Of a DNA stretch of 36,604 nt, positions 7,011 to 35,826 are shown one piece after another. Numbering within the stretch: position 1 is the first letter of the stretch; every line of letters begins with the position of its first letter. The position numbers and the translations under genes are program-made. The notes below the pieces were generated by a model, which saw only the letters and a list, made by a program, of their open reading frames with translations, had not been told where the DNA came from and did no database searches. Source of the stretch: a virus; the IMG/VR virus record IMGVR_UViG_3300027917_000012, positions 1 to 36,604 of that record; one strand, given 5' to 3'.

Positions 7011-7768
7011 TGTCTAATGGCACTTCTTACGCTCAGCGTGATGCGGCAGTAAGCCAGATTGCTGCGGGCATGGCTGGCGGCGTTACGGCAACCGTGCTGG
7101 GCTACGGCGACCCTGTGCGGACGATCACGGCTACTGGCATGGAAGGCCGTGGCGGTTTCCAGTTGCAGTACGGCGAAGAGCCAGAACCGATCACGGTTTC
7201 TGATGTAGCTGACGTGCTGTCTGGGCTGACCCCTCAAGACCAGACGTTGTTGGCTATTGACATGTTGGCGGTCGGTGTCTATGACGACATCAACTACATG
7301 TTTGATGACAACAACCAGATTGACCAGCAGTTCTTCGTGAAAGCGGTCAACAACGCTGTGTCTTTGGCGGCTACGTCTGCGGAGTACGGGCTAGACACGG
7401 ACTTCCTTGATGTGTTGCTGCGTAACTCTGACCGTACGCCGGAGGAGTTGACGGCGTTGTTTGCGGAGAAGAAGGCTGAGGCGCAGTCGGGCGGCGGGCG
7501 TGTCATCAACTACATTGATCCGGTTGCGTTGGTTGACGCTGCGAAGAAGGCTACGTCGTCGGTGACGGGCCGTATGGCGACCCCTGAGGAGTCGCAGGCG
7601 TTTGTGAAGATGATTCATGGGTTGCAGGCGTCGGGTGCGACTGGGATCAATGTGGGTGCTCGTGCTGAGGCGTTTGCTCGTGAGCAGGCTCCTGAGGAGG
7701 CTAAGGCAATGGATTACGCTGGTGCTGCTGGTGTGTTGATGCAGGCGTTGGGGATGCGAGGGCGATAA
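7010..7768 (+). CDS. Hypothetical virion-module protein (252 aa)
   Basis: Track ORF, with TGATG coupling upstream and TAATG coupling downstream. Confidence 0.7.
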   Translation: MSNGTSYAQRDAAVSQIAAGMAGGVTATVLGYGDPVRTITATGMEGRGGFQLQYGEEPEPITVSDVADVLSGLTPQDQTLLAIDMLAVGVYDDINYMFDDNNQIDQQFFVKAVNNAVSLAATSAEYGLDTDFLDVLLRNSDRTPEELTALFAEKKAEAQSGGGRVINYIDPVALVDAAKKATSSVTGRMATPEESQAFVKMIHGLQASGATGINVGARAEAFAREQAPEEAKAMDYAGAAGVLMQALGMRGR

Positions 7769-23147: not shown

Positions 23148-23363
23148 TTATTCTGGGAACATGTCGTCAACGGTGTCCGGCACAGCGAACCGGGCGCAGT
23201 TCTCAAGCGCGATCTCTGCGATTAGCTGCCACACAGCCCGTTCTTGGTTGATCGTTAGGTCGAGCCAGGGTTCGACGGTTGTTGCTGCGATGGGCACGTT
23301 GTCGAACTTGTCCCATCCGACCACGAGTAGTCCTGCGAAATCTTCGTCACCGTCGAAGTCCAT
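23148..23363 (-). CDS. Hypothetical acidic protein (71 aa)
   Basis: Track ORF. Its start abuts the upstream stop (TAAATG). Confidence 0.55.
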   Translation of the reverse strand: MDFDGDEDFAGLLVVGWDKFDNVPIAATTVEPWLDLTINQERAVWQLIAEIALENCARFAVPDTVDDMFPE

Positions 23364-23756
23364 TTACACAACATACCACTCAGGGTCAGCGGCTGGCTTC
23401 GTTAGTTTGAGCGGGCCGGTGCCGTAGGTGGGGCAGTGCGCGAAGTGTGGTTGTCGGTTGCCGTTGCGGTCGATGAGTGTGGGGCCGGAGCATTCGTGGC
23501 ATTGCATTTCGTTGCTGTCGTTGTCCCAGGATCGTTTGGGTCGTAGTCCTCGTGCCCGTGCCATGAGTGTGCCGAGCGGCGGCGGGAACTCGCGTCCTTC
23601 ACCGGCGTAGGCATCGAGCGCTTGGCGTACGAGGGTGGGGTGTAGGTCGCCTGCGTGTTGTGCCCATTCGTCTGCGGTCTGGGCGGTGATCTTCATCGCT
23701 GTGCCCCACAAGGTTTTTGCGTGGGCTACGAGGTCGGCTGCTTCGTGTCGTTTCAT
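23364..23756 (-). CDS. Hypothetical protein (130 aa) with a Cys/His cluster
   Basis: GGAGGAA RBS. The N-terminal helical part (W..A....T..W...L...V..AL...FPPPLGTL) is reminiscent of G39P-type helicase-loader domains, but this is weak. CHEC...HFAHC follows. Confidence 0.6.
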   Translation of the reverse strand: MKRHEAADLVAHAKTLWGTAMKITAQTADEWAQHAGDLHPTLVRQALDAYAGEGREFPPPLGTLMARARGLRPKRSWDNDSNEMQCHECSGPTLIDRNGNRQPHFAHCPTYGTGPLKLTKPAADPEWYVV

Positions 23757-23802
23757 CGTTCCTCCATTGTCTCTCTACCTCCAAAAGTGGTGTTTCCCCA
23801 GG

Positions 23803-23836
23803 TCACGCGCGTCATTTGACGCGTTCGTGACGCGTT
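23803..23836. promoter_or_regulatory. TGACGCG(TT) repeat cluster (possible operator) in a 78-nt intergenic region
   Basis: TGACGCGTT at 23817-23825 and 23828-23836 (11-bp phase), plus an inverted TGACGCG at 23808-23814. Confidence 0.35.
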
Positions 23837-24494
23837 AAGTGCACACCCAGTGTTGCCATCCGCCTTCGGGGGCGGCGAGTGCCAGCCATGCGCTGACCCA
23901 GATGTTTGCTGCGGGGTCGAACACGTCGGCCCCTGGCCTGCCTGCACGGTCGGCCCTGTCAGGCCAGTATCGAGTCAAATGTTGCATGAGTCCTGATGCG
24001 CTACTGTTGGGGTTCTTGGCGTCCGGTAGCCCTGCCGATTCGCATTGCATGATTCGGAGAAACCGATGAACGTCAGCATCGCCGCCGCCGAATGCAAAGA
24101 CTGCTTCTGTAACGGCTGGTCGCCAACGCTCCACGTTGTCCCAGAACACGGTGGGTGCCTGCGTTGTGGGTGCAGGCGGGATCGTTGTTGCCGGGACGGT
24201 TACTGTTGTGGACGTGGAGGGGATCGAACCCTCGTGACCCGCTGATGCAGTAGCCTCAGCAGCGAACCCGACGTTCACGCCCGTCTCCGACAATGTAGTC
24301 GATGAGGGCGGCACGGTCGTGGATGTCGGGGCCGTCGGTTTGGCGAGCGTAGGCTCGTAGTTCTGCGAGGTTGAGGTCGTGGACGGTAACGGGTCGTCCG
24401 CAGCGCATGCTGTCAGAAGCGTCAGGAGCGCCGCTGTTGCGTTCAAGACCCATCGCCGGTACCTGAGTCCATCTGTCGTCTCAGAAGCTCCCAT
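23835..24494 (-). CDS. Lipoprotein with an SLT-type lytic transglycosylase domain (219 aa)
   Basis: MGASETTDGLRYRRWVLNATAALLTLLTAC is a signal with an LTAC lipobox. An S/T/P linker follows, then IMQCESAGLPDAKNPNSSASGLMQH (ES...GLMQ signature). Confidence 0.65.
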   Translation of the reverse strand: MGASETTDGLRYRRWVLNATAALLTLLTACAADDPLPSTTSTSQNYEPTLAKPTAPTSTTVPPSSTTLSETGVNVGFAAEATASAGHEGSIPSTSTTVTVPATTIPPAPTTQAPTVFWDNVERWRPAVTEAVFAFGGGDADVHRFLRIMQCESAGLPDAKNPNSSASGLMQHLTRYWPDRADRAGRPGADVFDPAANIWVSAWLALAAPEGGWQHWVCT

Positions 24495-25174
24495 TGGCGC
24501 TCCTCGTCGTTCTGACGGGATTCCACGATCTCATCATCCCAGCACTCGTTGTTGAGCCACGTCGAAGCATGGAGAATGAACCCTGCTTCCACACGGCTGT
24601 CAAAGTCCCGGTACGTTCGCATAGCGTCCAGCAGGCGGTCATGACCGACCTTCTTCGCTGCTTTGGCATAAGCCCTCCTGGCTTCAGGCTTCCGCACCTT
24701 GCGTGGGTACTCGGCCCACCAGATGTCGAAGTCCTGTTGTTCGTTCGGTTGTTCATCCGCTTGCGGATGGACGATAGGAAATAAAGGTTCAGAACCACAT
24801 GGGTCTGGTTCTACTGGGTCTGGTTCAGGGGGAGACAAATTTGTCTCCGGGGGGGAGACACCGATGTCCTGGGGGGGTAGGACACCAGTGTCTCCCCTAA
24901 CACGCATCACCAAATACGTGTTGGAAGTCTGCGAACCGTTGTCTCGACTGCGTTCCGAGACACGAATCCACCCTTCGTCACGCAACTCCGCGATGCATCG
25001 CTGTACCGTCCGAGCAGACAGCCCGGTACGGTCACCGATGGTCGCTTTGCTAGGCCACGAAGTCTGGTGCTGGTTCGCAGCCTCGGCCAGCACAGCGTAG
25101 ACACACACTGCGCTGGCCGAGACGGTGCCAAGCATCCCGAGTGGGACGATGGCGAATGGGTGACTAACTGCCAC
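24443..25174 (-). CDS. Winged-HTH DNA-binding protein, replication-initiator or replisome-organizer-like (243 aa)
   Basis: GTG start after AAAGGGAGGAA. N-terminal wHTH (SKATIGDRTGLSARTVQRCIAELRDEGWI). C-terminal FDIWWAEYPRKVRKPEARRAY...STWLNNECWDDE pattern is common in phage replication proteins. Confidence 0.55.
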   Translation of the reverse strand: MAVSHPFAIVPLGMLGTVSASAVCVYAVLAEAANQHQTSWPSKATIGDRTGLSARTVQRCIAELRDEGWIRVSERSRDNGSQTSNTYLVMRVRGDTGVLPPQDIGVSPPETNLSPPEPDPVEPDPCGSEPLFPIVHPQADEQPNEQQDFDIWWAEYPRKVRKPEARRAYAKAAKKVGHDRLLDAMRTYRDFDSRVEAGFILHASTWLNNECWDDEIVESRQNDEERQWELLRRQMDSGTGDGS

Positions 25175-25322
25175 TTGGCAGTTCCTCCCTTTGGTAGATG
25201 CCGGTCAACAGGAACCGGCGTATCAACAACGAACGAGACACCCCGTCGTCCGCTGCGAGCTTGGTCAGGCGGTCGAGCACGTCTTTGGGTAGACGTAGCG
25301 TGACCGCAGTGTCATTGCTCAT
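25161..25322 (-). CDS. Ribbon-helix-helix (CopG/Arc-like) DNA-binding protein, 53 aa
   Basis: Not in the track. MSNDTAVTLRLPKDVLDRLTKLAADDGVSRSLLIRRFLLTGIYQREELPSGS. ATGA overlap with the upstream gene and a 14-nt overlap with the downstream GTG. Confidence 0.65.
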
Positions 25323-25537
25323 GCCTCAGCCCGCCGTTCCTCCTCGATCCAAGCTGCCACGTCTTGCAGGACATACTTGACGGAGCCACAAAGGCGGAAG
25401 CTGCGTGGACCCTGTCCTTTGGAGCGCCAGTTGGCGAGCGTGTGCACGTTAATGCCGATCAGTTCAGACAGTTCTTTAGGCGACACCATCTTAGGAATGC
25501 CATCAGGCCGCTTCTCGGCAGTGTTCGGTGTTTGCAT
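25319..25537 (-). CDS. Excisionase/MerR-like HTH DNA-binding protein (72 aa)
   Basis: VSPKELSELIGINVHTLANWRSKGQGPRSFRLCGSVKYVLQDVAAWIE matches the Xis/AlpA-type HTH pattern. Confidence 0.65.
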   Translation of the reverse strand: MQTPNTAEKRPDGIPKMVSPKELSELIGINVHTLANWRSKGQGPRSFRLCGSVKYVLQDVAAWIEEERRAEA

Positions 25538-25965
25538 CAGAACGGCTCCATCGAAGCGTTGTCGTATTGCTGCACCGTCGCACCTGGGAACGCAGCAGCA
25601 ACAGCCGCAGAGTTGTCACGAGGCGGCAGGATCTGCTGACCCAACCGGTACACCCCCATCTCCCACGTCTGCACCGTCTGGCCCTGCTTGTTCACATACG
25701 AACCGGCCTTGACCTTGCCACGCACCATCACCTTCGACCCCTTACCGGTCGCCTCAGCAATCGCACGACCCTCAGCATCAGAGTTGTCGTTGCGGTTCGG
25801 CCACACAGTCAAGCTGACCCACGTCGCAGGCTCATCCTTGCCGTTCGACAAAGCAACAGCCGACTCCCACAGCGTCTTCTCGACACCCTGCACGGTCACC
25901 GTCTTCGATTCCCAGTCGCGTCCGAGGTTGCCCTCGATGCTCTGGATCTGTCCATCATTCAGCAT
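25537..25965 (-). CDS. ssb: Single-stranded DNA-binding protein (142 aa from MLNDGQ)
   Basis: OB-fold pattern (IEGNLGRDWE...WVSLTVWPN...GKGSKVMVRGKVKAGSYVNKQGQTVQTWEM), a flexible tail and a C-terminal ...MEPF tip. 11-nt overlap with the upstream stop. Confidence 0.7.
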   Translation of the reverse strand: MLNDGQIQSIEGNLGRDWESKTVTVQGVEKTLWESAVALSNGKDEPATWVSLTVWPNRNDNSDAEGRAIAEATGKGSKVMVRGKVKAGSYVNKQGQTVQTWEMGVYRLGQQILPPRDNSAAVAAAFPGATVQQYDNASMEPF

Positions 25966-26377
25966 TGCTGTCTTCTTCCTTCGTTGCGAGTGCCTTGTCC
26001 AGCACATAGGTTTCCTGGCACCACAGTTCGAGGCCCAGCCCGATACGCATAGCGCACCGCTTCACCGCATCCGATACGGCGTTCTTCACGTTCAGGCCCT
26101 CGTTCTGACCGGGCCGTTCGCACTCCCCAACTTCATCAATGACCACGGTGTGTTGCCCGTCGATGTTGAACACCATCCGAAGCACCACACCCTGAGCCTG
26201 TCCGTCTGCCGACCTGATGATCTGGGTGATCTCCTGCGAGGGCGGCACACCGAGCTTGGCGATCAGCATCTGCTGAATGTCGGCATGCGACACATAGTCA
26301 GCGGCGAAGCCACCTGGCTTCTGCTTGATGTACGACTTCGGGATCCTCTTCGCGAGGGCTTGTAGTTGCGTGGTCAT
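25955..26377 (-). CDS. Rad52/Sak-like single-strand annealing protein (140 aa)
   Basis: GAGGAAAGGAAA RBS. KNAVSDAVKRCAMRIGLGLELW motif typical of the Rad52/Sak family. Neighbours are an exonuclease and SSB. Confidence 0.65.
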   Translation of the reverse strand: MTTQLQALAKRIPKSYIKQKPGGFAADYVSHADIQQMLIAKLGVPPSQEITQIIRSADGQAQGVVLRMVFNIDGQHTVVIDEVGECERPGQNEGLNVKNAVSDAVKRCAMRIGLGLELWCQETYVLDKALATKEEDSNAE

Positions 26378-26405
26378 AGGTTTCCTTTCCTCAGGGTTGT
26401 TTCTT

Positions 26406-26627
26406 TCACCACTCTTTTTCCCACACTGCGAACTGGTTCATGAAGATGTCCTCGTTCACGAACAAGTCCTGCACTGCGGTCTTGATGTCGGAGTTGACGA
26501 GAGCGATCCGCACGTTCGCAGCCAGATCAGAAATCTCGCACAACCGGTCGATGGTGTCATCGCTGTTGCCGCATCCGAACACGTTCGCCATCGTCGCAGT
26601 GATGTCAATGGTGCGTCGTGGATCCAT
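26406..26627 (-). CDS. Hypothetical acidic protein (73 aa) in an AT-rich island
   Basis: Track ORF. TAATG coupling to the exonuclease gene. Confidence 0.55.
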   Translation of the reverse strand: MDPRRTIDITATMANVFGCGNSDDTIDRLCEISDLAANVRIALVNSDIKTAVQDLFVNEDIFMNQFAVWEKEW

Positions 26628-27505
26628 TAGCGCTTGCTCCGTTCGATCATCTCGACCGGGACTTCATCTTCGGACAGGCTGCGGCACACGGTGTTGTACT
26701 GGCAGTAGGCGCAGTTCCAAGGCTTTGCGCCCTTCTGCTGGTACTCGGGCCGGTCATGCACTAGCACAAGTTCGCCGTGATCGTTCGGCACGAACGCCGG
26801 AGCGATCTGGTCCTTGGCGTAGTAGCGGGCTGCGTACTGGAAGTGACGCAACTCGTCCATTGCAATGTCGTACGGCGTCTGCCCGTTCCAGTAGTCGTTG
26901 GTTTCGTGCAGGCCGAAATGCCATTCCACCATGTCGCCAGCCTTGATGCCTGCCCGGTAGTCGCTTTCCTTCGCAACGTACACAATCAGAATCGAGTCGG
27001 CTTCGATGCCGAGCGCATACAGGGTCGCCTGTGCGACATGCTCACGCTTCGGCCCCTCGTCTTTGCCAGGGTACGGCCACGCCAGCTTGGCTGCGTACCC
27101 GCTGACCGTCTTGATCTCGACAATCGTCTGGATGCCGGAGCCGTTCTGCGTGATGATCCCATCGCAGTGACCGGACAGGCCAAACTCCTCGATGCCGTGC
27201 CCGACCTTCTTGGACACTTCGGTCAGGTCAATCGGCACCTCAGCCTCGAAATACCAGCCGTTGCCGTCGCAATCCAACGCGTCCTGAACGGACTTGTGGA
27301 TGGCGTTGCCGATCTCAAACGCCATGTAGGTCTGAGGCGAGAACTCCTCGGACTCCATTGCGTTGTGAGCGCTGAATGTGCGCTTGCGGATGCACGCACC
27401 CGCATCGGACACCCTGAACGGTGTGTTGAAAGCTGTGGGCTTCGGCCCTGCTTCGTCACGCAGACGGATCTGGTTGTCCATCCACTCTTTCTGTACGTCC
27501 AGCAT
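26627..27505 (-). CDS. PD-(D/E)xK exonuclease, Cas4/RecB-like, with a 4-Cys cluster (292 aa from MLDVQ)
   Basis: AAGGAGGG RBS before ATG 27505. GHCDGII...VEIKTVSGY nuclease core. N-terminal Cys (DAGACIRKR) plus C-terminal CAYCQYNTVC (C-x2-C-x5-C). Confidence 0.7.
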   Translation of the reverse strand: MLDVQKEWMDNQIRLRDEAGPKPTAFNTPFRVSDAGACIRKRTFSAHNAMESEEFSPQTYMAFEIGNAIHKSVQDALDCDGNGWYFEAEVPIDLTEVSKKVGHGIEEFGLSGHCDGIITQNGSGIQTIVEIKTVSGYAAKLAWPYPGKDEGPKREHVAQATLYALGIEADSILIVYVAKESDYRAGIKAGDMVEWHFGLHETNDYWNGQTPYDIAMDELRHFQYAARYYAKDQIAPAFVPNDHGELVLVHDRPEYQQKGAKPWNCAYCQYNTVCRSLSEDEVPVEMIERSKR

Positions 27506-27662
27506 TCTGGACCCTCCTTGTTTGGTTGAAGTGATCGTTGATTCGTTGACGCTGAGCGATCGCCGCACGGTCACGGCGGTCACGCAGCCATTGTTCATAC
27601 CACATGCTGCGGGCGATGCCGAACCCAACAACGGCACCGCCCACAGCCGCAGCAACGAGCAT
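27456..27662 (-). CDS. Small membrane protein candidate (68 aa)
   Basis: TGATG coupling to the upstream gene. N-terminal hydrophobic helix MLVAAAVGGAVVGFGIA. It overlaps the exonuclease start by about 50 nt. Confidence 0.4.
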   Translation of the reverse strand: MLVAAAVGGAVVGFGIARSMWYEQWLRDRRDRAAIAQRQRINDHFNQTRRVQNAGRTERVDGQPDPSA

Positions 27663-27937
27663 CAGAACGGCTCGTTGGCGAACAGCAAGTCGTGGTTCTC
27701 AAGCTGCTCAGCGTTGTACTCGTCCATCAACGCAGCCCGCTCGTGCGGGTCGTTGTGCTCCTCACCGTCATGCTCGACATGCCAATCGGTCACGTCGTGA
27801 GCAAGCTGCTTGCTCAAGTATTCGGCGTCCTCACGGGACAGACGGAACGTCGAGGTGCTGGCCTGTCGTCCGTCTTCGGTTTCGCTGGTGATCGTCACGA
27901 AGAACAGATCCCCGTGGCGGCTGGTGTGAATAAACAT
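27662..27937 (-). CDS. Small acidic protein (91 aa) ending in an SSB-like tip (...LLFANEPF)
   Basis: GGAGG 9 nt upstream of ATG 27937. Sequence MFIHTSRHGDLFFVTITSETEDG...EYNAEQLENHDLLFANEPF. Confidence 0.6.
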   Translation of the reverse strand: MFIHTSRHGDLFFVTITSETEDGRQASTSTFRLSREDAEYLSKQLAHDVTDWHVEHDGEEHNDPHERAALMDEYNAEQLENHDLLFANEPF

Positions 27938-27982
27938 TGGTATGTACCTCCAAGCACAGACTGTAACACGTTGTGTCACGGA

Positions 27983-28285
27983 TTAGGTGGGTTTGTCAAG
28001 ATTTCTTTGCCGACGACGCTCACGCTGCCGCTCATTCCGAGCCTCAAACCGGGCACGATGCCTGTCCTCAGGCGTCAAACCCGCATAAATCCCGTAGTCG
28101 TCCTCGTACCTCGGATGATCGCCCAGAATGTACTCACGACACTCCTCCAACACCGGACAAGCAGCACAAACAGCCTTCGCATCCTCGATGTCACGCAACG
28201 CCTTACCAGACGCAGCACCCTTCACCGGAAAGAAAAAGTTCGTGTCGTAGCCTCGGCACGCAGCGTCGACCATCCACTCCGTCAC
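27983..28285 (-). CDS. whiB: WhiB-family 4Fe-4S transcription factor (100 aa; alternative start 28273)
   Basis: C-x(n)-CAACPVLEEC Cys pattern, GIYAGLTPEDR turn and an Arg-rich C-terminus. Confidence 0.8.
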   Translation of the reverse strand: MTEWMVDAACRGYDTNFFFPVKGAASGKALRDIEDAKAVCAACPVLEECREYILGDHPRYEDDYGIYAGLTPEDRHRARFEARNERQRERRRQRNLDKPT

Positions 28286-28698
28286 TCCTCCATACCCCCA
28301 GCAATCAACGCAGCCGACAAATCCTCACACAACCCAGGCGGCAACGAAATCGTCGTCCCCGTCCGAGGATTGATGACTTGCCACTGCAACGCATCAGCAA
28401 ACGTCGTCTGCGGCTGATACCGCAACACAAACGTCCGCTCCCGAGCACGCTCCACAATCTCTGCCGCTGCCTCCCACATGTCGTCACCGGCACGATTCAC
28501 CAGATTCATGACCGTTGTATGGTCCCGGCCCAGCATCGACCCGATCTCCGGGTAGCTGTACCCCAGAATCCGTAGCGACACCGCCGCAACACGCCGAGCC
28601 TTCACCACAGGCGCATGCCTGTTCCCGCTCAACATGTCATCGAGATGCACCCTGCTGTACTCCGCAGACGCCTCCAACACCTCAGCGTCGTACATCAC
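28282..28698 (-). CDS. DnaA domain IV-like HTH protein (138 aa)
   Basis: APVVKARRVAAVSLRILGYSYPEIGSMLGRDHTTVMNLVNRA matches the DnaA C-terminal DNA-binding domain pattern (R..A.yL....S...IG...g.rDHtTV). Confidence 0.65.
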   Translation of the reverse strand: MMYDAEVLEASAEYSRVHLDDMLSGNRHAPVVKARRVAAVSLRILGYSYPEIGSMLGRDHTTVMNLVNRAGDDMWEAAAEIVERARERTFVLRYQPQTTFADALQWQVINPRTGTTISLPPGLCEDLSAALIAGGMEE

Positions 28699-28816
28699 GA
28701 GCCTCCCGCAGCACCTGCTTCACCCAATCCGACGGACGCTGATCCGAACGCAAATCACTCGACTGCTTCGGATGACGCAAAATTTCGTCATGCTGCATCG
28801 CAGTTTGTTCCTTCAT
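28682..28816 (-). CDS. Candidate 44-aa ORF (MKEQTAMQHDEILRHPKQSSDLRSDQRPSDWVKQVLREARDVRR)
   Basis: Not in the track. ATGA overlap with the upstream gene. It overlaps the downstream start. Confidence 0.35.
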   Translation of the reverse strand: MKEQTAMQHDEILRHPKQSSDLRSDQRPSDWVKQVLREARDVRR

Positions 28817-29007
28817 GGTTTCTTCCTCGTTCCAGGCGGCAAATGACAACCGCAGTCACACAACGGACGGGCCACCCGCACGTCGTCATTCCAAAGGCTG
28901 CCCCTGATGCATTCATAGCCAGCAGGCACCGGGCACTGGTGTGGTTTCTTCACAGTTCCCCCTTCGTTCTCCACACCATACGCACACCCTGTGACACCTG
29001 CAACCAT
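28813..29007 (-). CDS. Small Cys-rich protein (64 aa from MVAGVTGC...)
   Basis: Internal ATG of track ORF 28813..29250. The upstream part of that ORF covers the operator region and looks non-coding. Contains CPVPAGYEC...CDCGCH. Confidence 0.5.
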   Translation of the reverse strand: MVAGVTGCAYGVENEGGTVKKPHQCPVPAGYECIRGSLWNDDVRVARPLCDCGCHLPPGTRKKP

Positions 29008-29040
29008 TTCGATCAGGTAGAGCGATGAGGTGTAGCGATA

Positions 29041-29065
29041 GTGACGCCTTACGGCGTCACTTTTT
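29041..29065. promoter_or_regulatory. 8-bp inverted repeat GTGACGCC-ttac-GGCGTCAC plus T5. Operator-like, or a plus-strand terminator-like hairpin
   Basis: Read directly from the sequence. On the minus strand its arm overlaps a CACTAT -10-like hexamer (29038-29043) located about 30 nt upstream of ATG 29007. Confidence 0.45.
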
Positions 29066-29074
29066 CGCCGTCGG

Positions 29075-29120
29075 CGAACGCCCGTTCGGGCGAACATACG
29101 TTCGTGCGAACATATGTTCG
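29075..29120. promoter_or_regulatory. Three abutting LexA/SOS-box-like palindromes (CGAAC-N4-GTTCG) at a 16-bp phase
   Basis: CGAACGCCCGTTCG 29075-29088, CGAACATACGTTCG 29091-29104, and CGAACATATGTTCG 29107-29120 (a perfect 14-bp palindrome identical to the Bacillus Cheo-box consensus). Confidence 0.7.
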
Positions 29121-29154
29121 TTCCACAATGCGGAACGGTTCCACAATGCGGAAC
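29120..29154. promoter_or_regulatory. Two tandem GTTCC-N7-GGAAC dyads (18-bp direct repeat GTTCCACAATGCGGAACG)
   Basis: GTTCCACAATGCGGAAC at 29120-29136 and 29138-29154, contiguous with the SOS-box array. Confidence 0.6.
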
Positions 29155-29376
29155 AACCGCGGAGAGTAGTGGCCGGCTCTCACTCTGCGCGGTCGCGGCG
29201 TTGTGCGGGCGTCTCGTGCGTTCCGGCGTTGCGGGCGTATTCCGGCGCACGCGAAACGCCCGGAACGCTTAGGGGTGCGCTCCGGGCGTCTCCGGGGGTT
29301 CTAGGTTGTCGGGCGCTACGTCATCCGGTGAGAACCCATAGCACTAGAATCAGTAGCAGGAGCCACCCCAGGGGCG

Positions 29377-30192
29377 TCACCTGGGCGCATCCTTCCCCGT
29401 CGAAAAGCGCACGTTACCGGTTCCACCGGGCAGACAATGGGCGCACGTAGCGCACGCGCCCGCCGCGGTCTCGGGATCCACAAGGGGAACGCGCCCGGTG
29501 AGTTCCGGGCAACGCAACCCGCGACGCTCGCCCATTGCTTGCGCGAGTTCCGCAGTTTCGTCCCAACTGTCACCGGAGAACGCCAACCGGAGCCACGGGT
29601 GGCGGGCGATCGCTCGGCGCGCTGATTGCACGTTGTCGCGGTCGACTGACAGGAAGACGCTTAGCGTCTCCGGTGGGCGCCCGGTGGACGGTAGGCGGAA
29701 CCTATGCGCCCACTTGTGCGCTCGGGTGTAGACCCATCCGCGCACGTTCGGGCGCATCTCGTGCGCCCGGGCTATGGCTGTCGCGTGCGTCTCGTGCGCT
29801 AGTTCCCCGTCCCACTGCCACCGGAACAACGGCGCCCGGACGCCCGCTAGGCGTTGCGCCGCGGCCGATTCGTCCAGCAGTGCGGCGAACATCTCCGCTA
29901 GCTCATCTGGGCGGTTTTCGTAGGCCATGACCGCGGCGTAGTTGTCCGCCATCATCCGGCCTACGGCAGGAAAACGGCGATCGATTGCCGCGGCGTAGCA
30001 ACCGTGGCAAAAGTCGGTTTTGTGCGGTTCGCACGATTCACGCGCGAGGCCGAACGAATTAGGCACGGCTGCCCAGTCTCCTGACGGCTTTAGCCGGGCG
30101 TGCGTGCACGTTTTCCGGTTGGTCGAGAGACGCAACATAGGCGGCGCGCTTGTCACCGGGATGGTGCGGCGCTTGGTCCTAGTAGTCATCAT
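29377..30192 (-). CDS. Cys-rich metal-binding protein (271 aa from MMTTRTKRR). Resembles the 'gene product 88' phage family as I recall it
   Basis: Internal ATG with a 14-nt overlap on the upstream stop. CTHAR...C..H....FCHGCYAA...FRWQWDGEL...VRGWVYTRAHKW...CATCAHC. Confidence 0.55.
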   Translation of the reverse strand: MMTTRTKRRTIPVTSAPPMLRLSTNRKTCTHARLKPSGDWAAVPNSFGLARESCEPHKTDFCHGCYAAAIDRRFPAVGRMMADNYAAVMAYENRPDELAEMFAALLDESAAAQRLAGVRAPLFRWQWDGELAHETHATAIARAHEMRPNVRGWVYTRAHKWAHRFRLPSTGRPPETLSVFLSVDRDNVQSARRAIARHPWLRLAFSGDSWDETAELAQAMGERRGLRCPELTGRVPLVDPETAAGACATCAHCLPGGTGNVRFSTGKDAPR

Positions 30193-30436
30193 CCCACCTT
30201 TCACCTGCTGCGGTTGGGTCAAACCAACCGGGCGCAACGTCGGAATTGGCCCAGCGGGCGAGACTGTCGCGGGACTCGTACCGGTCCCACATTTGTTCTG
30301 CGTGGGCGTCGCAACGGGGGAACGCCCGCCCGAACCGTCCGGGGACCTCGTGGAACGCCACCGGACCGCGGCACGGTCCGGCGTTGGGGTGCCCATGCTC
30401 TAGGCAATCTTCCGGCAGTAGTTCGGGCGCGCTCAT
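30179..30436 (-). CDS. Small Cys/His-rich protein (85 aa)
   Basis: ATGA overlap upstream. CLEHGHPNAGPCRGP...FPRCDAH. Confidence 0.55.
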   Translation of the reverse strand: MSAPELLPEDCLEHGHPNAGPCRGPVAFHEVPGRFGRAFPRCDAHAEQMWDRYESRDSLARWANSDVAPGWFDPTAAGERWDDDY

Positions 30437-30702
30437 CGGTCCCACCCCAAAAACTCGGCGTCCGCGTGCATCGCGGCCACGGCGTCGACATCTTCGCCGA
30501 GAACGTCGAACAGTTCCGCGGCCAGGTGGGCGCGTGGGTCGTTGGAACGTTGGCAGGGTGGCCCGCCGAATAGCGTTCCGCATCCGTCATTCGCGAACGT
30601 GCGGCGGGCGTCGTCGTAGCTCGCGGCGTATCCGTCTTCTACGGCATCGTGCAAGCTGTCTACGTGCCACGGTTCCGCGCATCTCGGACAATAAATATCC
30701 AT
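30433..30702 (-). CDS. Small zinc-ribbon-like protein (89 aa)
   Basis: MDIYCPRCAEPWHVDSLHD...DGCGTLFGGPPC. Confidence 0.6.
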   Translation of the reverse strand: MDIYCPRCAEPWHVDSLHDAVEDGYAASYDDARRTFANDGCGTLFGGPPCQRSNDPRAHLAAELFDVLGEDVDAVAAMHADAEFLGWDR

Positions 30703-30791
30703 ATCTGGTTTTCTTTCTGGTTGGGTTGTTCCGGTCTAGTTACCGGGGCGAACGCGCCCACCGGCGTGGGCGGACGCGCTCGGCTCGGGAA

Positions 30792-31178
30792 CTAGAACGC
30801 TCCGCCCGGCATCGGTTCGGGGAATATGCAACCGGACGCCAACCGGGGGCGCACATAGTCCCCTAGCGTCCATCCGGCGCGATCCTCGCCCGATATGACC
30901 GCCCATACGCTCGCCCGGTAATGGTCTGCGCGTAGCGGTCCCATTGGACGCCGGGACACTGCCCAACCGGCAGGCAGATAGGCGGCGATCCGGTCTAGCT
31001 CAATAGCGGCGGCGCGTGGGTCATCTGGTAGGCGCACGCGGCACCGGTCCGGCATGCTCGGCGGTTCGCAATCGTGCCCGTGGTGCCATTCGTCGGCGTC
31101 CGGGCCATCCGTTAGGTCAAACTCGCGCCCGCAATCTAGGCACGTTATGTAACCCCATTCACTGCGTGCGGGCGTCAT
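30792..31178 (-). CDS. Zinc-ribbon N-terminal domain protein (128 aa from MTPARSEW)
   Basis: ATGA overlap upstream. ITCLDCGREFDL...WHHGHDC. Confidence 0.55.
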   Translation of the reverse strand: MTPARSEWGYITCLDCGREFDLTDGPDADEWHHGHDCEPPSMPDRCRVRLPDDPRAAAIELDRIAAYLPAGWAVSRRPMGPLRADHYRASVWAVISGEDRAGWTLGDYVRPRLASGCIFPEPMPGGAF

Positions 31179-31369
31179 CGGTTCTCGAACCTTTCTCGTG
31201 CGTCGGTGTCGTACGCCCATCGCACGGCGTCGGCGTGGGCTGTCTCACCGGTGAACCGGACAACGCAACGCCCGGACGGTTCGTGGATGACGCGAGCTAG
31301 GCACCCATCGGGCGATGACTCCGCCCGGTATCGGCCCACGCGTGCGTCGGTGTGCGTGTAGGTGGTCAT
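31175..31369 (-). CDS. Hypothetical protein (64 aa from MTTYTHTD)
   Basis: GAGGAAGG RBS. A CACTATCGG motif lies about 31 nt upstream of the ATG. Confidence 0.5.
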   Translation of the reverse strand: MTTYTHTDARVGRYRAESSPDGCLARVIHEPSGRCVVRFTGETAHADAVRWAYDTDARERFENR

Positions 31370-31382
31370 TCGTTGCCTTCCT

Positions 31383-31613
31383 CTAGGCGGTTGGGGTGTC
31401 CGATAGTGGGCGCACCGACTCCCAACGGTCCGCGTTGATAGTAAACGGTGCGACCAGTGCGCCACCTGGCTGGAGCGCCCGGCGCCACGGCGCCCGGTAG
31501 TACGCGAGCAAGTGCCGCGCCCGGTGCTTACGCCACCGGCGACGTTCCTCTCGCGTGGGGAATACGGCCGCGAGCAGTACGCCTGCAATAGCTGCCCAGA
31601 TTGGCGCAGTCAT
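31383..31613 (-). CDS. Small membrane protein (76 aa from MTAPIW)
   Basis: ATGA overlap upstream. N-terminal TM helix APIWAAIAGVLLAAVF, then an Arg-rich stretch. Confidence 0.5.
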   Translation of the reverse strand: MTAPIWAAIAGVLLAAVFPTREERRRWRKHRARHLLAYYRAPWRRALQPGGALVAPFTINADRWESVRPLSDTPTA

Positions 31614-31840
31614 CGCGACACCTTCCACCGGATCTCCCCCACGGTATTTCCGTTGGCATCGCGCAACGGTTGCGCGTGCGACTCGGGCGGCTGGTCCACG
31701 TCTAGCGCATGCTCAAGCACTGCACTCATTGCGCCTAGCGCGTCGACTGGTTCGGCTATTGCGGCATTGCCTAGTACGACGTGGGCGAATAGGTGAACGA
31801 TCGCCGGGCGTTCGGTTGGGCGGCTCATGCTGCCTACCAT
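31610..31840 (-). CDS. Hypothetical protein (76 aa; alternative start 31828)
   Basis: ATG 31840 overlaps the upstream TAG (ATGGTAG). Confidence 0.45.
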   Translation of the reverse strand: MVGSMSRPTERPAIVHLFAHVVLGNAAIAEPVDALGAMSAVLEHALDVDQPPESHAQPLRDANGNTVGEIRWKVSR

Positions 31841-32106
31841 TCGTCGTACGCGTCGGCGTGGAATGCCGCGCAGGCGTCCAGGTCCGCTTCTAGGCGCATC
31901 TCCGCGGCGGTCATCCGGACTTCGTCGTTTTCGGTGCGCTCCATCGCGTAGAGCGTGCAATCCGCCCAGAACTCCGCAGCTTCTTCGGGGGAATCCCCGA
32001 ATCGGTGATAGGTCGCGGCGGCGTGGCGCGGCATTGGTTCCATCGGGCGCGGCTCAACTGTCGCGAGATGCGCTAACGCCCGGGCGTGGTAATCGTCTAG
32101 GTGCAT
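31834..32106 (-). CDS. First early gene: acidic hypothetical protein (90 aa)
   Basis: Track ORF. It is the first minus-strand ORF downstream of the divergent control region. Confidence 0.55.
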   Translation of the reverse strand: MHLDDYHARALAHLATVEPRPMEPMPRHAAATYHRFGDSPEEAAEFWADCTLYAMERTENDEVRMTAAEMRLEADLDACAAFHADAYDEW

Positions 32107-32148
32107 GGCTGGTTCCTGTTCCGGCGGCTCGTTCGGCCACCTGGGGGA

Positions 32149-32170
32149 ACCTTAGCGCCTGAATGTGACA
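32149..32170 (-). promoter_or_regulatory. Candidate early promoter resembling the actinobacterial LexA-independent DNA-damage motif (TGTCR...-N8-TAnnnT)
   Basis: The minus strand reads TGTCACAT-TCAGGCGC-TAAGGT. The -10 lies about 43 nt upstream of ATG 32106. Single instance with a partial match. Confidence 0.25.
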
Positions 32171-32199
32171 CGCGCACGCCATCCGGGCCACTAGGTGCG

Positions 32200-32307
32200 C
32201 CGATAGTGGCACCGGCTCCTCGAGTCGCGCCCGATAGTGAACCCCACCGGCCCAAGGGCTCGCCCGCTCGACCATCGCACCCAACCGGCCCACGCCTGCC
32301 CGATAGC
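32200..32307 (-). promoter_or_regulatory. Three copies of the (C)ACTATCGG / CTATCGG motif (minus-strand reading), each near a CCGGTG element
   Basis: Plus-strand CCGATAGTG at 32200-32208 and 32231-32239, and CCGATAG at 32299-32305. CACCGG at 32210, 32245 and 32317. Further copies at 29036-29043, 31400-31408 and 32535-32542, and one on the opposite strand at 32606-32612. Confidence 0.45.
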
Positions 32308-32415
32308 AACTAGCGCCACCGGCGCTAGGCGCTAGCAAACAACCCAACCGCCCAGCGTGACAATCCCACCGGCACCCGCCCGGTATGTCTAGGCATAGGC
32401 GCCCGGTTCTAGTGG

Positions 32416-32493
32416 CGAACGTTTGTTCGGGCGTACAGGTGTTTGTGCGAACGTATGTTCGGGGCGAGGGTCCGAAAAGCGAACGTATGTTCG
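32416..32493. promoter_or_regulatory. Three LexA/SOS-box-like palindromes at an exact 32-bp phase
   Basis: CGAACGTTTGTTCG 32416-32429, CGAACGTATGTTCG 32448-32461, CGAACGTATGTTCG 32480-32493. Confidence 0.7.
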
Positions 32494-32544
32494 CAGTTAG
32501 GGGCCATAACGAACCGGTTAGGGGGTATCACGGTGCGATAGTAG

Positions 32545-32558
32545 ACGAACTTGTTCGT
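32545..32558. promoter_or_regulatory. Related dyad ACGAAC-TT-GTTCGT abutting a minus-strand TACTAT hexamer
   Basis: CGAAC-N2-GTTCG at 32546-32557. The TACTAT hexamer (minus strand) is at 32538-32543. Confidence 0.4.
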
Positions 32559-32610
32559 CCAGAACATGGGGGGATGTGCCGAGGCACATGCTATATAGGA
32601 ATATGCTATC

Positions 32611-32666
32611 GGTGGGTTGGGTGTTTTGGTTTGTTGGTGTGTGTGGGGTGGGGTGTTTTGGTTGGG
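32611..32666 (+). other. 56-nt tract composed only of G and T (C/A on the minus strand), with an internal 13-nt direct repeat
   Basis: ggtgggttgggtgttttggtttgttggtgtgtgtggggtggggtgttttggttggg. GGGTGTTTTGGTT occurs at 32618-32630 and 32651-32663. Preceded by an AT-rich island and followed by the hairpin GGGACC...GGTCCC (32664-32683). Confidence 0.8.
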
Positions 32667-32894
32667 ACCGTGCCCTGGGTCCCTCCGTCAGTTTAGGTTG
32701 ATCGCCTGCCAACGTTCTGCGGTGTGTGTTGGCTGGTCGTGCCCGCCCCGTCCCAGGGGCCGTCGTTTCTCGGGCACGACTCGGAGGCCCTTCTGACGGG
32801 CGACGCTCACGCGTGCAAGGCGTGGCCCCAACGGTTGACCGGGTTGGGGTGCCGGTTGGTGTAGTGTAGCAGGTGACTAGTTGGAGGTTGTGTC

Positions 32895-33126: not shown

Positions 33127-33282
33127 ATGGCTGCGAAGAAGGGTTTGTACGCGAACATTCACGCGAAGCGGAAGCGGATCAAGGCTGGTTCTGGTGAGCG
33201 GATGCGGAAGCCTGGGTCGAAGGGCGCTCCGACGGCTGCTGCGTTCAAGCGTTCTGCGAAGACTGCGAAGAAGCGTCGCTGA
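33127..33282 (+). CDS. Small highly basic protein (51 aa)
   Basis: Not in the track. GGGAG RBS. MAAKKGLYANIHAKRKRIKAGSGERMRKPGSKGAPTAAAFKRSAKTAKKRR (18 of 51 residues K/R). TGATG coupling downstream. Confidence 0.6.
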   Translation: MAAKKGLYANIHAKRKRIKAGSGERMRKPGSKGAPTAAAFKRSAKTAKKRR

Positions 33283-33566
33283 TGCCGAAGAAGCCTGATT
33301 CTCGTTTGAAGCGTGTCGGCGTTTCTGGCTACAACAAGCCGAAGCGCACGCCGAACCATCCGACCAAGAGCCATGTTGTTGTGGCGAAGGAAGGCGATCG
33401 TGTTAAGACGATTCGATTCGGCCAGCAGGGCGTGTCTGGTGCGGGCAAGAACCCGAAGACGGCTGCTCAGAAGGCGCGTCGTAAGTCGTTCAAGGCTCGT
33501 CATGCGAAGAACATTGCGAAGGGCAAGATGTCTGCTGCTTATTGGGCGAACAAGGTGAAGTGGTGA
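33282..33566 (+). CDS. Small basic protein (94 aa) of a family I recognise from diverse phages and giant viruses; function unknown
   Basis: KPKRTPNHPTKSHVVVAKEGDRVKTIRFGQQG...RRKSFKARHAKNIAKGKMSAAYWANKVKW pattern. Confidence 0.65.
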   Translation: MPKKPDSRLKRVGVSGYNKPKRTPNHPTKSHVVVAKEGDRVKTIRFGQQGVSGAGKNPKTAAQKARRKSFKARHAKNIAKGKMSAAYWANKVKW

Positions 33567-33856
33567 TGGCTCCTCCAAGAATGCCTCGTAGCCAACTGTC
33601 CGAGTCGGCCAAGTATTATCGGGACAACCCGAAAGCTCGCCGTAAGAAGGCTGCGACGGACAAGAAGGTGAACGCTCGGCCTGAGCAGCGCCGTAAGCGC
33701 ACCGAGTTGTCGAAGGCTCGCAGGCAGGCGAAGAAGCGTGGCGTGGATCTGCGTGGCAAGGACATGTCGCACACGAAAGATGGTCGGATGGTGCCAGAGA
33801 ACTCGTCGCGTAACCGTGCCCGTCAGGGTTCTAACGGCAAGTCCACGAAGAAGTAG
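33566..33856 (+). CDS. Small basic protein (96 aa from MAPPRMPRS)
   Basis: TGATG coupling upstream. SAKYYRDNPKARRKKAATDKKVNARPEQRRKRTELSKARRQAKKRG. Confidence 0.6.
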   Translation: MAPPRMPRSQLSESAKYYRDNPKARRKKAATDKKVNARPEQRRKRTELSKARRQAKKRGVDLRGKDMSHTKDGRMVPENSSRNRARQGSNGKSTKK

Positions 33857-33858
33857 CC

Positions 33859-35826
33859 ATGCCGTCTGGCAAGCACACTACACCGGAGCAGTGGGTCCAA
33901 TATTTGCTGATGCGCCGTGGCGGCGAGTCAATGCGACAGTCCGCAATCAAAGCAGGCGTCAACTACCACTCGGCACGCGACAACGAATCAGGACGCACCT
34001 CAACCCGTTCCTGGCTGCAAGCCAAAGAACAAGTCGACAAAATCGGCGTATCAAAGATCCCTACCTATGAGCACCTCGACCCAGCCGCACAAGAAGCACA
34101 TGACAACATCGAAGCATTTGCACTCCGTTACTTCGGAATCATTCTCCAACCCTGGCAAATCGAAGCAACCGAAAAAGTAAACGAACTCCTCAACACGCCA
34201 CAAGAGGAATACATCGTCATCAACGCACCCCCCGGCTCCGGCAAATCCACGTTTTTTGCGAAAGTGCTTCCGGCGTGGGCGACCGTCCGCAACCGTGCCC
34301 TACGAGGCATGATCGGTTCCTCCACTCAACGCCTAGCCGAGTGGTACACACGGCGGCTGCGTGCCGAGTTCGAACGTGAGCACGTTGCCCGTGCCGAACT
34401 GAACGACCAGAAGATCGGTATCGCCGTAGATGCCGTCCGCACCATGCAACAGGACTTTGGTGCGTTCAAGCCTGATGCGAAGGAAATATGGAGAGCCGAA
34501 GCCTTCACCATTTTGCAGCCCGACGACCAGCCCCTGTCACAGAAAGAACCTACCTGGTCAGCGTTTGGCATGGACTCTGGCTTCCTTGGTGGCCGTTTTG
34601 ACCTCGTGATCTGGGACGACGTGTGGGATCCACGCAAGATGCGTAACTCCGAATCCCGCTCCGACATGTACCGCTGGTGGGACGAAGTAGCAGAAACCCG
34701 ACTCGAACCGGGCGGTCTGTTAGTGTTGAACGGCCAGCGCATGTCGTCTGACGACATCTACCGGTACGCACTAGATAAGAAGGCCCCGCTTGACGAGGAC
34801 GAAATGGACTCGGTGGGGGAGGGCATGGTGCCAGAGGAGAACTCTGGACAGGCTTCCTCCTTGCCTAGTGAAACACTCTCCCCCACTGAGGAATCCAAGT
34901 ACCATCATTTGAAGTACAAGGTTCATTACGAGGACCGGTGCGACAACGACCACAGCTTGAACGCAAAGCCGTACCCTGAAGGGTGTCTGCTGTATCCGCG
35001 TCGTTTGCCGTGGAAGAAGATCCGGCATATCAAGGCGCAGACTCCTGACCGGTACGAGATCCTGTACCAGCAGGAAGACGCCGACCCGTCATCGGTGCTC
35101 GTTGACCCGATCTGGGTGTCGGGTGGCGAAGGCCGTGACGGTGTGCATCATGTTGGTTGTTGGGACAGCGACCGTGACTTGTGGGAGCTTCCGCAGTATT
35201 TGCCGTCTGATCCTGTAATTCTTGCTTCAGCGGACCCCAGCCCGTCAAACTTTTGGGCATTGCAATGCTGGGCATACGTTGAGGAAACAGAGTACCGGTA
35301 TTTGTTGGAGTCGTACCGGCGCAAGATGGATGCGCCCTCGTTCTTGGATTGGAACCATGACACGCAATCTTTTACCGGCATCGCAGAGGAGTGGTGGCAG
35401 ATATCGAACGATATGGGGCACCCGATCCAGTATTGGATTGTTGAAGCGAACGCGGCGCAGAAATTCATCCTCCAGTACGACCACTTCCGCAGGTGGGCGT
35501 CGACGAGGGGCGTGGAGCTTGTGCCGCATTACACGCACTCGAAAAACAAGGGCGACCCGAAGTATGGGGTGCAGATGCTGGCCCCCTTGTACAAAGCCGG
35601 ACGTGTACGGTTGCCGGGGAAGCAGAGGACTGCCGCACGTCCACACTCGCTACTTTTGGTAAACGAGGTCACGAAGTGGAACCCTGAGGGCACTGGTTCC
35701 CGCACGGACGATTGTGTTATGGCACAATGGTTCATGGAGCACAATCTTGAAAAGATTTACACTCCATCTGTTGAGGCGGTGCGGCAGTGGCGACCGTCGT
35801 GGCTTTCTGGAGACGCGCGCATATGA
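33859..35826 (+). CDS. terL: Terminase large subunit (655 aa) with an N-terminal HTH-like extension
   Basis: Walker A VINAPPGSGKST, Walker B-like FDLVIWDDVWD, nuclease-like C-terminal half, and a portal gene immediately downstream. N-terminal ESMRQSAIKAGVNYHSARD looks like an HTH. Confidence 0.8.
   Translation: MPSGKHTTPEQWVQYLLMRRGGESMRQSAIKAGVNYHSARDNESGRTSTRSWLQAKEQVDKIGVSKIPTYEHLDPAAQEAHDNIEAFALRYFGIILQPWQIEATEKVNELLNTPQEEYIVINAPPGSGKSTFFAKVLPAWATVRNRALRGMIGSSTQRLAEWYTRRLRAEFEREHVARAELNDQKIGIAVDAVRTMQQDFGAFKPDAKEIWRAEAFTILQPDDQPLSQKEPTWSAFGMDSGFLGGRFDLVIWDDVWDPRKMRNSESRSDMYRWWDEVAETRLEPGGLLVLNGQRMSSDDIYRYALDKKAPLDEDEMDSVGEGMVPEENSGQASSLPSETLSPTEESKYHHLKYKVHYEDRCDNDHSLNAKPYPEGCLLYPRRLPWKKIRHIKAQTPDRYEILYQQEDADPSSVLVDPIWVSGGEGRDGVHHVGCWDSDRDLWELPQYLPSDPVILASADPSPSNFWALQCWAYVEETEYRYLLESYRRKMDAPSFLDWNHDTQSFTGIAEEWWQISNDMGHPIQYWIVEANAAQKFILQYDHFRRWASTRGVELVPHYTHSKNKGDPKYGVQMLAPLYKAGRVRLPGKQRTAARPHSLLLVNEVTKWNPEGTGSRTDDCVMAQWFMEHNLEKIYTPSVEAVRQWRPSWLSGDARI

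Follow-up and report, generated by a model that had tools for sequence, protein, structure and literature searches.

Tandem LexA-type boxes in two early control regions of an uncultured tailed phage suggest coupling to the host SOS response

The viral genome record IMGVR_UViG_3300027917_000012 of IMG/VR, analyzed here over its whole length of 36,604 bp (hereafter the window; 59% guanine plus cytosine, GC), carries six exact copies of the 14-bp palindrome CGAAC-N4-GTTCG, the core of the LexA operator of Gram-positive bacteria including actinobacteria. Because these perfect sites occupy two control regions and are arranged as they are before bacterial lexA genes, they suggest that the phage couples its early programme to the SOS response of its host. 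Our favored explanation, which we hold to be probable though not secure, is that the six palindromes are host LexA operators damping leftward early transcription as well as replication and recombination transcription until SOS induction. The assignment of the core to LexA, made in an earlier sequence-only reading of this DNA, agrees with the specificity of LexA from Streptomyces venezuelae, which binds tCGAAC-N4-GNNCGa according to chromatin immunoprecipitation sequencing and surface plasmon resonance; lexA has two of its sites and dnaE2 three (PMC9380542).

The number of boxes far exceeds expectation. In 100 dinucleotide-preserving shuffles of the window, a count proposed along with that earlier reading, the exact motif was found 0.12 times on average and never more than once, against six times in the window. 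All six boxes fall into two intergenic regions upstream of leftward genes, and none into the 33 kb of coding DNA. The three sites reported earlier at 32416, 32448 and 32480, 32 bp apart (32416-32493; here cluster 2), are present as described; a second exact trio at 29075, 29091 and 29107 (cluster 1) had been overlooked. In the following, L-numbers are labels of the loci compared (viral relatives, other viral contigs and metagenome contigs). The relatives are 54 IMG/VR loci obtained by a terminase search, with 67-98% identity in the large terminase TerL and a GC of 39-62%. The boxes, given without strand, are these:

32416 to 32429: box 2a of cluster 2, CGAACGTTTGTTCG, exact; found in L002 and L032 but lost by deletion from L001 and L137.
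32432 to 32445: decayed box, CGTACAGGTGTTTG, two mismatches; intact at the homologous position in L001 and L032.
32448 to 32461: box 2b, CGAACGTATGTTCG, exact; intact in all five array-keeping relatives.
32480 to 32493: box 2c, CGAACGTATGTTCG, exact; intact in the window and all four array-keeping relatives.
29075 to 29120: cluster 1, boxes CGAACGCCCGTTCG (29075), CGAACATACGTTCG (29091) and CGAACATATGTTCG (29107), exact and back to back.

Cluster 1 lies inside the intergenic region 28954-29376, its boxes 16 bp apart. The base register of cluster 2 is likewise 16 bp, with the decayed box at 32432 filling the gap between the first two exact boxes, and in the relatives L001 and L032 spacings of 15, 16 and 33 bp occur. 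Given this decayed box and these spacings, the exact 32-bp phasing is, as judged from the aligned arrays, a by-product of box decay and not a conserved design. The earlier idea that helical phasing places all sites on one face of the DNA has to be abandoned, as the 32-bp spacing stems from the decayed box and is absent in relatives; at 16-bp spacing, adjacent dimers would lie on roughly opposite faces. A degenerate LexA box proposed at 32510, CGAACCGGTTAGGG, was rejected as well: its right arm is mismatched at four of five positions, leaving a half-site only, and it overlaps a GTTAG-N5-MTMAC repeat.

The closest counterparts of these arrays were found in front of cellular lexA genes. Using the tandem pattern CGAAC-N4-GTTCG-NN-CGAAC-N4-GTTCG, i.e., two back-to-back boxes, we found at least 120 loci in metagenome contigs. 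Among the matches listed, 18 of 120 tandem-box contigs encode a LexA homologue (tblastn E 1e-30 to 4e-4), and in 17 of these 18 the boxes are situated 90-420 bp upstream of the aligned part of LexA, which by position is the lexA promoter; three contigs, again among the matches listed, have four boxes before lexA. An instructive case is L201 (GC 54%), a lexA-nrdR-nrdJ locus of a kind typical of actinobacteria, with Pfam matches to LexA_DNA_bind, Peptidase_S24, NrdR and class II ribonucleotide reductase. Its operator reads CGAACAAGTGTTCG-tg-CGAACGTATGTTCG, so that the second box is identical to boxes 2b and 2c of the window and the linker is the tg of cluster 1. Because cellular lexA promoters contain these tandem boxes as well, the back-to-back 16-bp register is, on this comparative evidence, the native LexA autoregulatory arrangement, and it is this layout of autoregulated, actinobacterial-type lexA genes that cluster 1, to judge from its sequence, reproduces. 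Actinobacterial lexA operators resemble the window in the 14-bp core and in the 16-bp register, and comprise two to four boxes per promoter. The window thus combines the core, a promoter-proximal non-coding placement and the multi-box arrangement of genuine lexA promoters.

Among viruses, tandem boxes were found in 40 IMG/VR contigs, which form 22 nucleotide-similarity groups, cover a GC range of 32-69% and hold up to 12 boxes in some cases. Two control palindromes searched in the same tandem format, CGTTC-N4-GAACG (arms swapped, same composition) and GCAAC-N4-GTTGC, gave zero contigs. The sequence-only reading had regarded such an array as unusual for an actinophage that looks lytic, a judgment to be qualified in view of this spread, which includes a group of cultured Gordonia phages. 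One of these, Marietta (MH669007), for which neither integrase nor repressor is annotated, has three perfect TCGAAC-N4-GTTCGA boxes in a 658-bp divergent region heading a leftward block with WhiB, helicase, Cas4, RecA-like and DnaE genes. A fourth Marietta box, GCGAACATCTGTTCGG, was observed at 48584-48597, about 150 bp upstream of the RecA-like gene (gp66); beyond these four no further boxes occur in its 64 kb, and a Pfam scan of the Marietta genes flanking the boxes found nothing. A greedy map of open reading frames (ORFs) was too noisy for annotating the array contexts in the unrelated GC-rich contigs.

To relate the boxes to transcription, we rely on predicted promoters. The element CGATAGTR occurs five times in the window (29036, 31401, 32201, 32232 and 32536), on one strand only and confined to 29036-32543, where 0.97 copies were expected for the window. 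Of these copies, four were compared with gene starts: three precede, by 35-100 nt, a leftward start that has a ribosome-binding site, and the copy at 32536 implies a leader of about 420 nt. The element, CACTATCGS in its minus-strand form, is probably the -10 region of leftward early promoters. It resembles TAnCRC, which follows the boxes of cellular lexA promoters after about 5 nt, a likeness noticed post hoc. A simple sigma-70 consensus scan was uninformative in this GC-rich DNA. The elements that flank the boxes are as follows:

32535 to 32557, minus strand: predicted core of a leftward early promoter, made up of the dyad CGAAC-TT-GTTCG (32546-32557) and, after it, the -10-like TACTATCGC (complement of 32535-32543).
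32496 to 32532, no strand: imperfect palindrome GTTAG-N5-MTMAC, twice (32496 and 32517), direct-repeat family D5; kept in L001, L002, L032 and L137.
29036 to 29065, no strand: CGATAGTG element (minus-strand CACTATCGC, predicted -10), followed by a stem-loop, GTGACGCC-TTAC-GGCGTCAC, and a run of T.
29120 to 29154, no strand: palindrome GTTCCACAATGCGGAAC, twice (consensus GTTCCRCAWTGYGGAAC), abutting the boxes.

Relative to the outermost predicted leftward promoter, whose -10 is at 32535-32543, cluster 2 spans about +37 to +114; cluster 1 spans about -44 to -90 relative to the predicted promoter of the replication/recombination block (-10 at 29036-29043). In an undamaged cell, LexA dimers on both clusters would dampen leftward transcription, cluster 2 acting as a roadblock in the leader of the outermost promoter and cluster 1 acting upstream of the promoter for the genes of a DnaA-C-like helix-turn-helix (HTH) protein, WhiB, a Cas4 exonuclease, a Rad52-like protein, the single-stranded DNA-binding protein SSB and an O-like replication initiator. 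Since two family-specific palindromes abut the boxes of cluster 1, LexA would probably compete or cooperate with their binder there. Upon DNA damage, RecA-stimulated cleavage of LexA would lift the block, and the early, replication and recombination genes of the phage would be expressed like an SOS regulon.

Several observations weigh against host LexA as the reader of the boxes. The boxes do not overlap the -35 and -10 regions of the CACTATCGS promoters, which are themselves predicted, and neither cluster occupies the classical occluding position relative to the predicted -10 elements; for this reason, the gating of early transcription proposed earlier is something that we infer. Cellular lexA boxes, in contrast, are located about 5 nt upstream of TAnCRC. 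The outer flanks of the window boxes are mostly G...G, as opposed to T...A in the 16-bp consensus; cellular lexA promoters are likewise variable at these positions. The only dyad that does occupy the place of the LexA box in cellular lexA promoters (box, about 5 nt, TAnCRC) is the one at 32546-32557, noted before together with the minus-strand TACTAT (32538-32543), both of which are indeed present. In the window, its spacer is N2. Like the window, L001 and L137 have 2 nt there; L002 has 3 nt and L031 has 4 nt, so that LexA-box geometry is found in the L031 version only; the window dyad seems to behave like a stem-loop beside a CGATAGTR element, as at 29036-29060. The relatives add a further difficulty: a box was found in only 11 of the 33 relatives that extend at least 1.5 kb upstream of TerL. 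In L031, at 98% TerL identity, three to four GTTAGG-N4-CCTAAC sites replace the boxes between conserved flanks, and at the array position of L030 the 16-bp register is kept by about ten TGTGAC-N4-GTCACA sites. Other 5-N4-5 palindromes at this place in near-identical relatives are the pattern one would expect from a swapped, phage-encoded specificity.

The array position is variable in other relatives as well, with three copies of CGAAC-N4-GTACG in L005 and CCTCGAG repeats in L006. About two thirds of the relatives are without a box and some have other palindromes instead; LexA control, if real, would seem to be an optional module that is gained, lost and exchanged among close relatives, not a family trait. 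Where the arrays persist, their conservation is uneven. The alignment of cluster 2 reveals conserved arms and spacers free to vary, and the same holds for cluster 1 in L032, L004, L061, L088 and L137. Because this recurs in both clusters, selection is, as the alignments indicate, on the box arms and not on the spacers, as is typical of a site that a dimer recognizes.

Such a dimer could also be phage-encoded. The boxes would then be operators of a phage regulator, for instance of an early protein that silences the outer early promoter while turning on the middle one, and the identity with the LexA core would be coincidence or mimicry. We regard this as unlikely, roughly a one-in-several chance. 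It accounts well for the exchange of array types between close relatives with 5-N4-5 geometry and 16-bp register retained, for palindrome types that are interleaved in L098, L102, L108 and L120, and for TTAGG-N4-CCTAA triplets placed like classical operators between divergent ORFs in prophage-like contigs of 38% GC. The position of the clusters, upstream of one promoter and downstream of another, would suit an activator/repressor switch, and many small early ORFs without assigned function could encode the protein. Since array swaps usually indicate phage-encoded specificity, a phage-encoded binder was searched for. Pfam and PHROGs revealed no Cro/CI-like or LexA-like DNA-binding domain in the early proteins of the window, be it in the ORFs adjacent to the arrays or elsewhere; the only DNA-binding hits are the DnaA-domain-IV HTH (the nearest HTH protein), WhiB and the winged helix of the O-like initiator. 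Neither an integrase nor a CI-like repressor is among the window proteins scanned, as stated in the sequence-only reading. A LexA homologue of the phages themselves was rejected as binder, as tblastn with E. coli LexA and L201 LexA gave no match in the window or in any viral locus. A shared neighboring gene as cognate regulator was likewise rejected, since all-against-all BLAST revealed no protein common to the array neighborhoods of the 22 groups, the largest cluster covering 8 loci. By these searches, no phage protein tracks with the boxes. Identical tandem boxes in cellular lexA promoters and the empty result for the control palindromes also argue against a phage regulator.

The swaps themselves point in the same direction when flanking genes are considered. 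The exchange that sets the sister phages L028 and L030 apart is limited to about 540 bp of non-coding DNA with flanks of 82-96% identity, and L027 retains CGAAC sites without either of the two L028-specific genes that adjoin the array. An operator specific to an immunity group would fit an array swapped among relatives, but not a core that occurs in 22 unrelated viral groups and in lexA promoters. The stoperators of Cluster A mycobacteriophages, at which a repressor encoded by the phage acts, are asymmetric. They resemble the boxes of L220 and L155 in recurring before many early genes, whereas sites of the window type are palindromic and have the host LexA core.

The alternative palindromes form arrays of their own. 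TGTGAC-N4-GTCACA arrays in 16-bp register were observed in L030 (7180-7500), L098 (14313-14437) and L099 (102-190), the sites alternating with CGAAC boxes in L098. GTTAGG-N4-CCTAAC arrays occur in L031 (1836-1925), in L029 and L054 (near 8930 and 8765, respectively) and in 33 IMG/VR contigs (L103-L131), sometimes overlapping CGAAC boxes as in L120; the prophage-like contigs with three TTAGG-N4-CCTAA sites between divergent ORFs are L104, L106 and L119. The GTTAG repeats of the window do not belong here, as they give no match to TTAGG-N4-CCTAA even at two mismatches and their spacing is off by one. In the low-GC relatives L027, L028 and L030, copies of an element some 80 bp long lie between early genes (in L028 at 5759-5840, 7128-7207, 7355-7442 and 7876-7953) and may provide boundaries that promote mosaic recombination.

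A broader and rather speculative reading, which we rate as doubtful, treats the early control regions of this phage family, and those of other actinophages, as exchangeable cassettes of operator arrays, each tied to a master regulator of the host and each to a different one. LexA would read CGAAC-N4-GTTCG, which would report DNA damage. TGTGAC-N4-GTCACA, equivalent to TGTGA-N6-TCACA, would be read by a regulator of the CRP/GlxR type in L030, L098 and L099; the CRP/GlxR consensus is TGTGA-N6-TCACA. The TTATCCACA/TTTCCACA boxes would be read by DnaA, canonical DnaA boxes accompanying many arrays, and GTTAGG-N4-CCTAAC perhaps by a dimer of the DtxR/IdeR type. Lytic phages devoid of a repressor would then swap sensor modules by recombination within a few hundred non-coding bases.

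The elements abutting the boxes help to separate general from family-specific readers. The GTTCCRCAWTGYGGAAC-type palindrome, GTTCC-N7-GGAAC, is confined to the phage family of the window (17 of 160 tandem-box loci among the matches listed). As the box is spread widely and this palindrome restricted to one family, the pattern matches what would be expected if a universal host factor read the box and a family-specific one the abutting palindrome. In L220 and L155, a whole cassette is found about ten times within 14 kb, directly ahead of early genes, and consists of two to three DnaA-box-like repeats (ATTTCCACAG/TTATCCACA), a pair of GTTCC-N7-GGAAC palindromes, between one and five CGAAC boxes and a hairpin rich in GC. 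Because these cassettes are repeated right before early genes, the box is, from its genomic context, part of a promoter-proximal regulatory unit. For the DnaA-box-like repeats, the DnaA-domain-IV-like protein of the phage (28282-28698) is a candidate binder. The stem-loop GTGACGCC-TTAC-GGCGTCAC at 29041-29060 displays compensatory changes in relatives (GCC/GGC, ACC/GGT, CCC/GGG) and precedes a plus-strand T run in the window, a terminator and a promoter-upstream structure being the options.

The same cassettes bear on a second alternative, in which the arrays do not regulate phage genes at all and replicating phage genomes instead act as a LexA sponge, titrating the repressor and thereby turning on the host SOS regulon for benefits such as recombination, dNTP supply and division arrest. 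This appears improbable to us, more so than a phage regulator. Multiple boxes off the core promoters would serve such a purpose, relatives with up to 15 boxes in 14 kb (L220) even more so, and the copy number of sites would presumably rise with replication. A sponge would not, however, explain why boxes are always found in promoter-proximal cassettes just upstream of gene starts and never scattered, and the window holds only six of them.

Least probable of all, in our view, is a role of the arrays as origin iterons for the O-like initiator (24443-25174), with DnaA assisting at adjacent DnaA-box-like sequences. The notion derives from the presence of the initiator gene, from the likeness of the window repeats to lambda-type iterons, which are repeated in tandem and have a dyad within each repeat, and from DnaA-box-like sequences, including canonical TTATCCACA, that adjoin tandem boxes in 25 of 160 loci among the matches listed. 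Unlike lambda iterons, however, the window repeats are neither in nor next to the initiator gene, the two separate clusters lying 3.9 and 7.2 kb away, and they do not co-vary with the N-terminal domain of the initiator. L094 has boxes at 41% initiator identity, L138 has none at 82% identity of the N-domain, and L134, with an initiator 97% identical, has no intergenic region at the cluster 1 position; the initiator was rejected as binder since similarity of its N-terminal winged-helix domain does not track box presence. Tandem boxes occur in lexA promoters too, and the initiator gene has internal repeats of its own. These are located at 24800-24897, in the linker-encoding part, and comprise a direct repeat of TGGGTCTGGTTC (two copies) and a 19-nt inverted repeat; they are a candidate for a lambda-style internal origin.

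Returning to host LexA as the probable reader, co-option of this repressor by phages is already known. In the Bacillus tectivirus GIL01, host LexA together with phage gp7 controls the lytic switch (PMC4551915). GIL01 resembles the window in having no classical repressor of its own and host LexA boxes in a phage promoter (PMC4551915; PMC6950372), with the restriction that here the boxes are sequence matches. It differs in being a tailless linear-plasmid prophage with a LexA co-factor, whereas the window represents a tailed phage of 36.6 kb that encodes a large terminase and an O-like initiator; with its tailed-phage genes, the window falls outside the class of GIL01-type tectiviruses. A carrier or episomal state, as raised in the sequence-only reading, might at most be envisaged by analogy with GIL01. 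Streptomyces tectiviruses scanned for LexA sites had none (PMC6950372). In the CTX phage, in coliphage 186 (tum) and in SPC32H (antirepressor), host LexA sites in promoters link development to the SOS response (PMC9437464). All three infect Proteobacteria, are temperate and have just one promoter with one or two boxes, in contrast to the arrays of three to five boxes at several places in the lytic-looking actinophages studied here. Spo0A sites in phi29 and CtrA sites in phages of Alphaproteobacteria are further host-regulator sites in phages without lysogeny functions and were proposed to defer the lytic cycle (PMC9437464). They share with the window multiple promoter-associated sites for a host regulator; the signal is sporulation or cell cycle there, as compared to DNA damage here.

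An earlier description of LexA-box arrays in actinophages was not found in the literature searched, most subscription journals lying outside that search. New, as far as the sequences indicate, are multi-box arrays that copy the host lexA operator in repressor-less tailed actinophages and are both widespread and exchangeable. LexA co-option has been known mainly from a few temperate phages of Proteobacteria and from Bacillus tectiviruses, with one or two boxes per switch promoter; the arrays reported here stand ahead of early, replication and recombination genes in at least 22 viral groups, among them Gordonia phages in culture as well as uncultured actinophages that are abundant in aquatic habitats. 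Should LexA bind them, many "strictly lytic" actinophages would sense the DNA-damage state of their host. Such sensing would matter for natural pseudolysogeny or delayed lysis, for the dynamics between viruses and hosts that UV drives in surface waters, and for phage therapy against Mycobacteriales when DNA-damaging antibiotics are given as well.

As for the phage itself, the window is a complete, circularly permuted genome, because a 623-aa reading frame spans its end and start and closes it on itself. Rightward genes run from about 32,900 via TerL (33859-35826) across the junction to head, tail-fibre and holin genes, up to about 23,040, and leftward genes occupy 32,106 down to 23,148; the tailed-phage genes encoded include a large terminase, a major head protein and a tail fibre. 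tRNA genes were not found in the window. Megablast of the window against 50,697 phage records gave no match, the best tblastn matches of TerL to phage records were only 24-28% identical, and a scan of genome collections returned just two short, evidently mis-binned contigs of metagenome-assembled genomes (one Flavobacteriales, one Gemmatimonadota). By these comparisons, the phage is without a close cultured relative. Its host is probably actinobacterial, because the phage encodes WhiB, and the Pfam match listed below supports the same conclusion of the sequence-only reading. The leftward genes, all on the minus strand, are these:

29377 to 32106, minus strand: leftward early genes downstream of cluster 2 (ORF list and Pfam).
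29377 to 30396, minus strand: GP88/PF17338 protein; the remaining genes of 29377 to 32106 encode small proteins without assigned function.
23148 to 28953, minus strand: leftward gene block downstream of cluster 1 (Pfam and PHROGs).
Within 23148 to 28953, minus strand: 46-aa and 55-aa proteins, downstream of cluster 1.
28282 to 28698, minus strand: DnaA-domain-IV-like HTH protein (PF08299, E = 4.8e-14).
27983 to 28285, minus strand: WhiB (PF02467, E = 8.6e-17).
26627 to 27655, minus strand: Cas4-type exonuclease (Pfam/PHROGs).
25955 to 26377, minus strand: Rad52-like protein (Pfam/PHROGs).
25537 to 26007, minus strand: SSB (Pfam/PHROGs).
24443 to 25174, minus strand: O-like replication initiator (HTH_36, E = 4e-09; phrog_270, E = 2e-35).
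Within 23148 to 28953, minus strand: SLT-domain protein (Pfam/PHROGs).

Further conserved features surround cluster 2. Between it and the first leftward gene (32240-32380), four ACCCCACCGGCCCA-like repeats are found in non-coding DNA, and different short repeats take their place in L004 and L006. On the other side, a perfect 16-bp palindrome, ATGTGCCGAGGCACAT, is located at 32574-32589, just right of the breakpoint where homology of the relatives resumes; it is almost invariant across the high-GC relatives and may serve the rightward promoter as an operator or act as a packaging signal. Farther on, before the rightward genes, comes a tract of about 70 nt (32613-32680) that is strongly enriched in G and T and is kept even in relatives of 40% GC (L027-L030). 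Just before the terminase gene, positions 33127-33856 encode three small, very basic, Lys/Arg-rich proteins of 51, 94 and 104 aa. The two longer ones have no Pfam match, the 51-aa protein lying outside that scan, and homologues 35-98% identical occur in many relatives all across the GC range.

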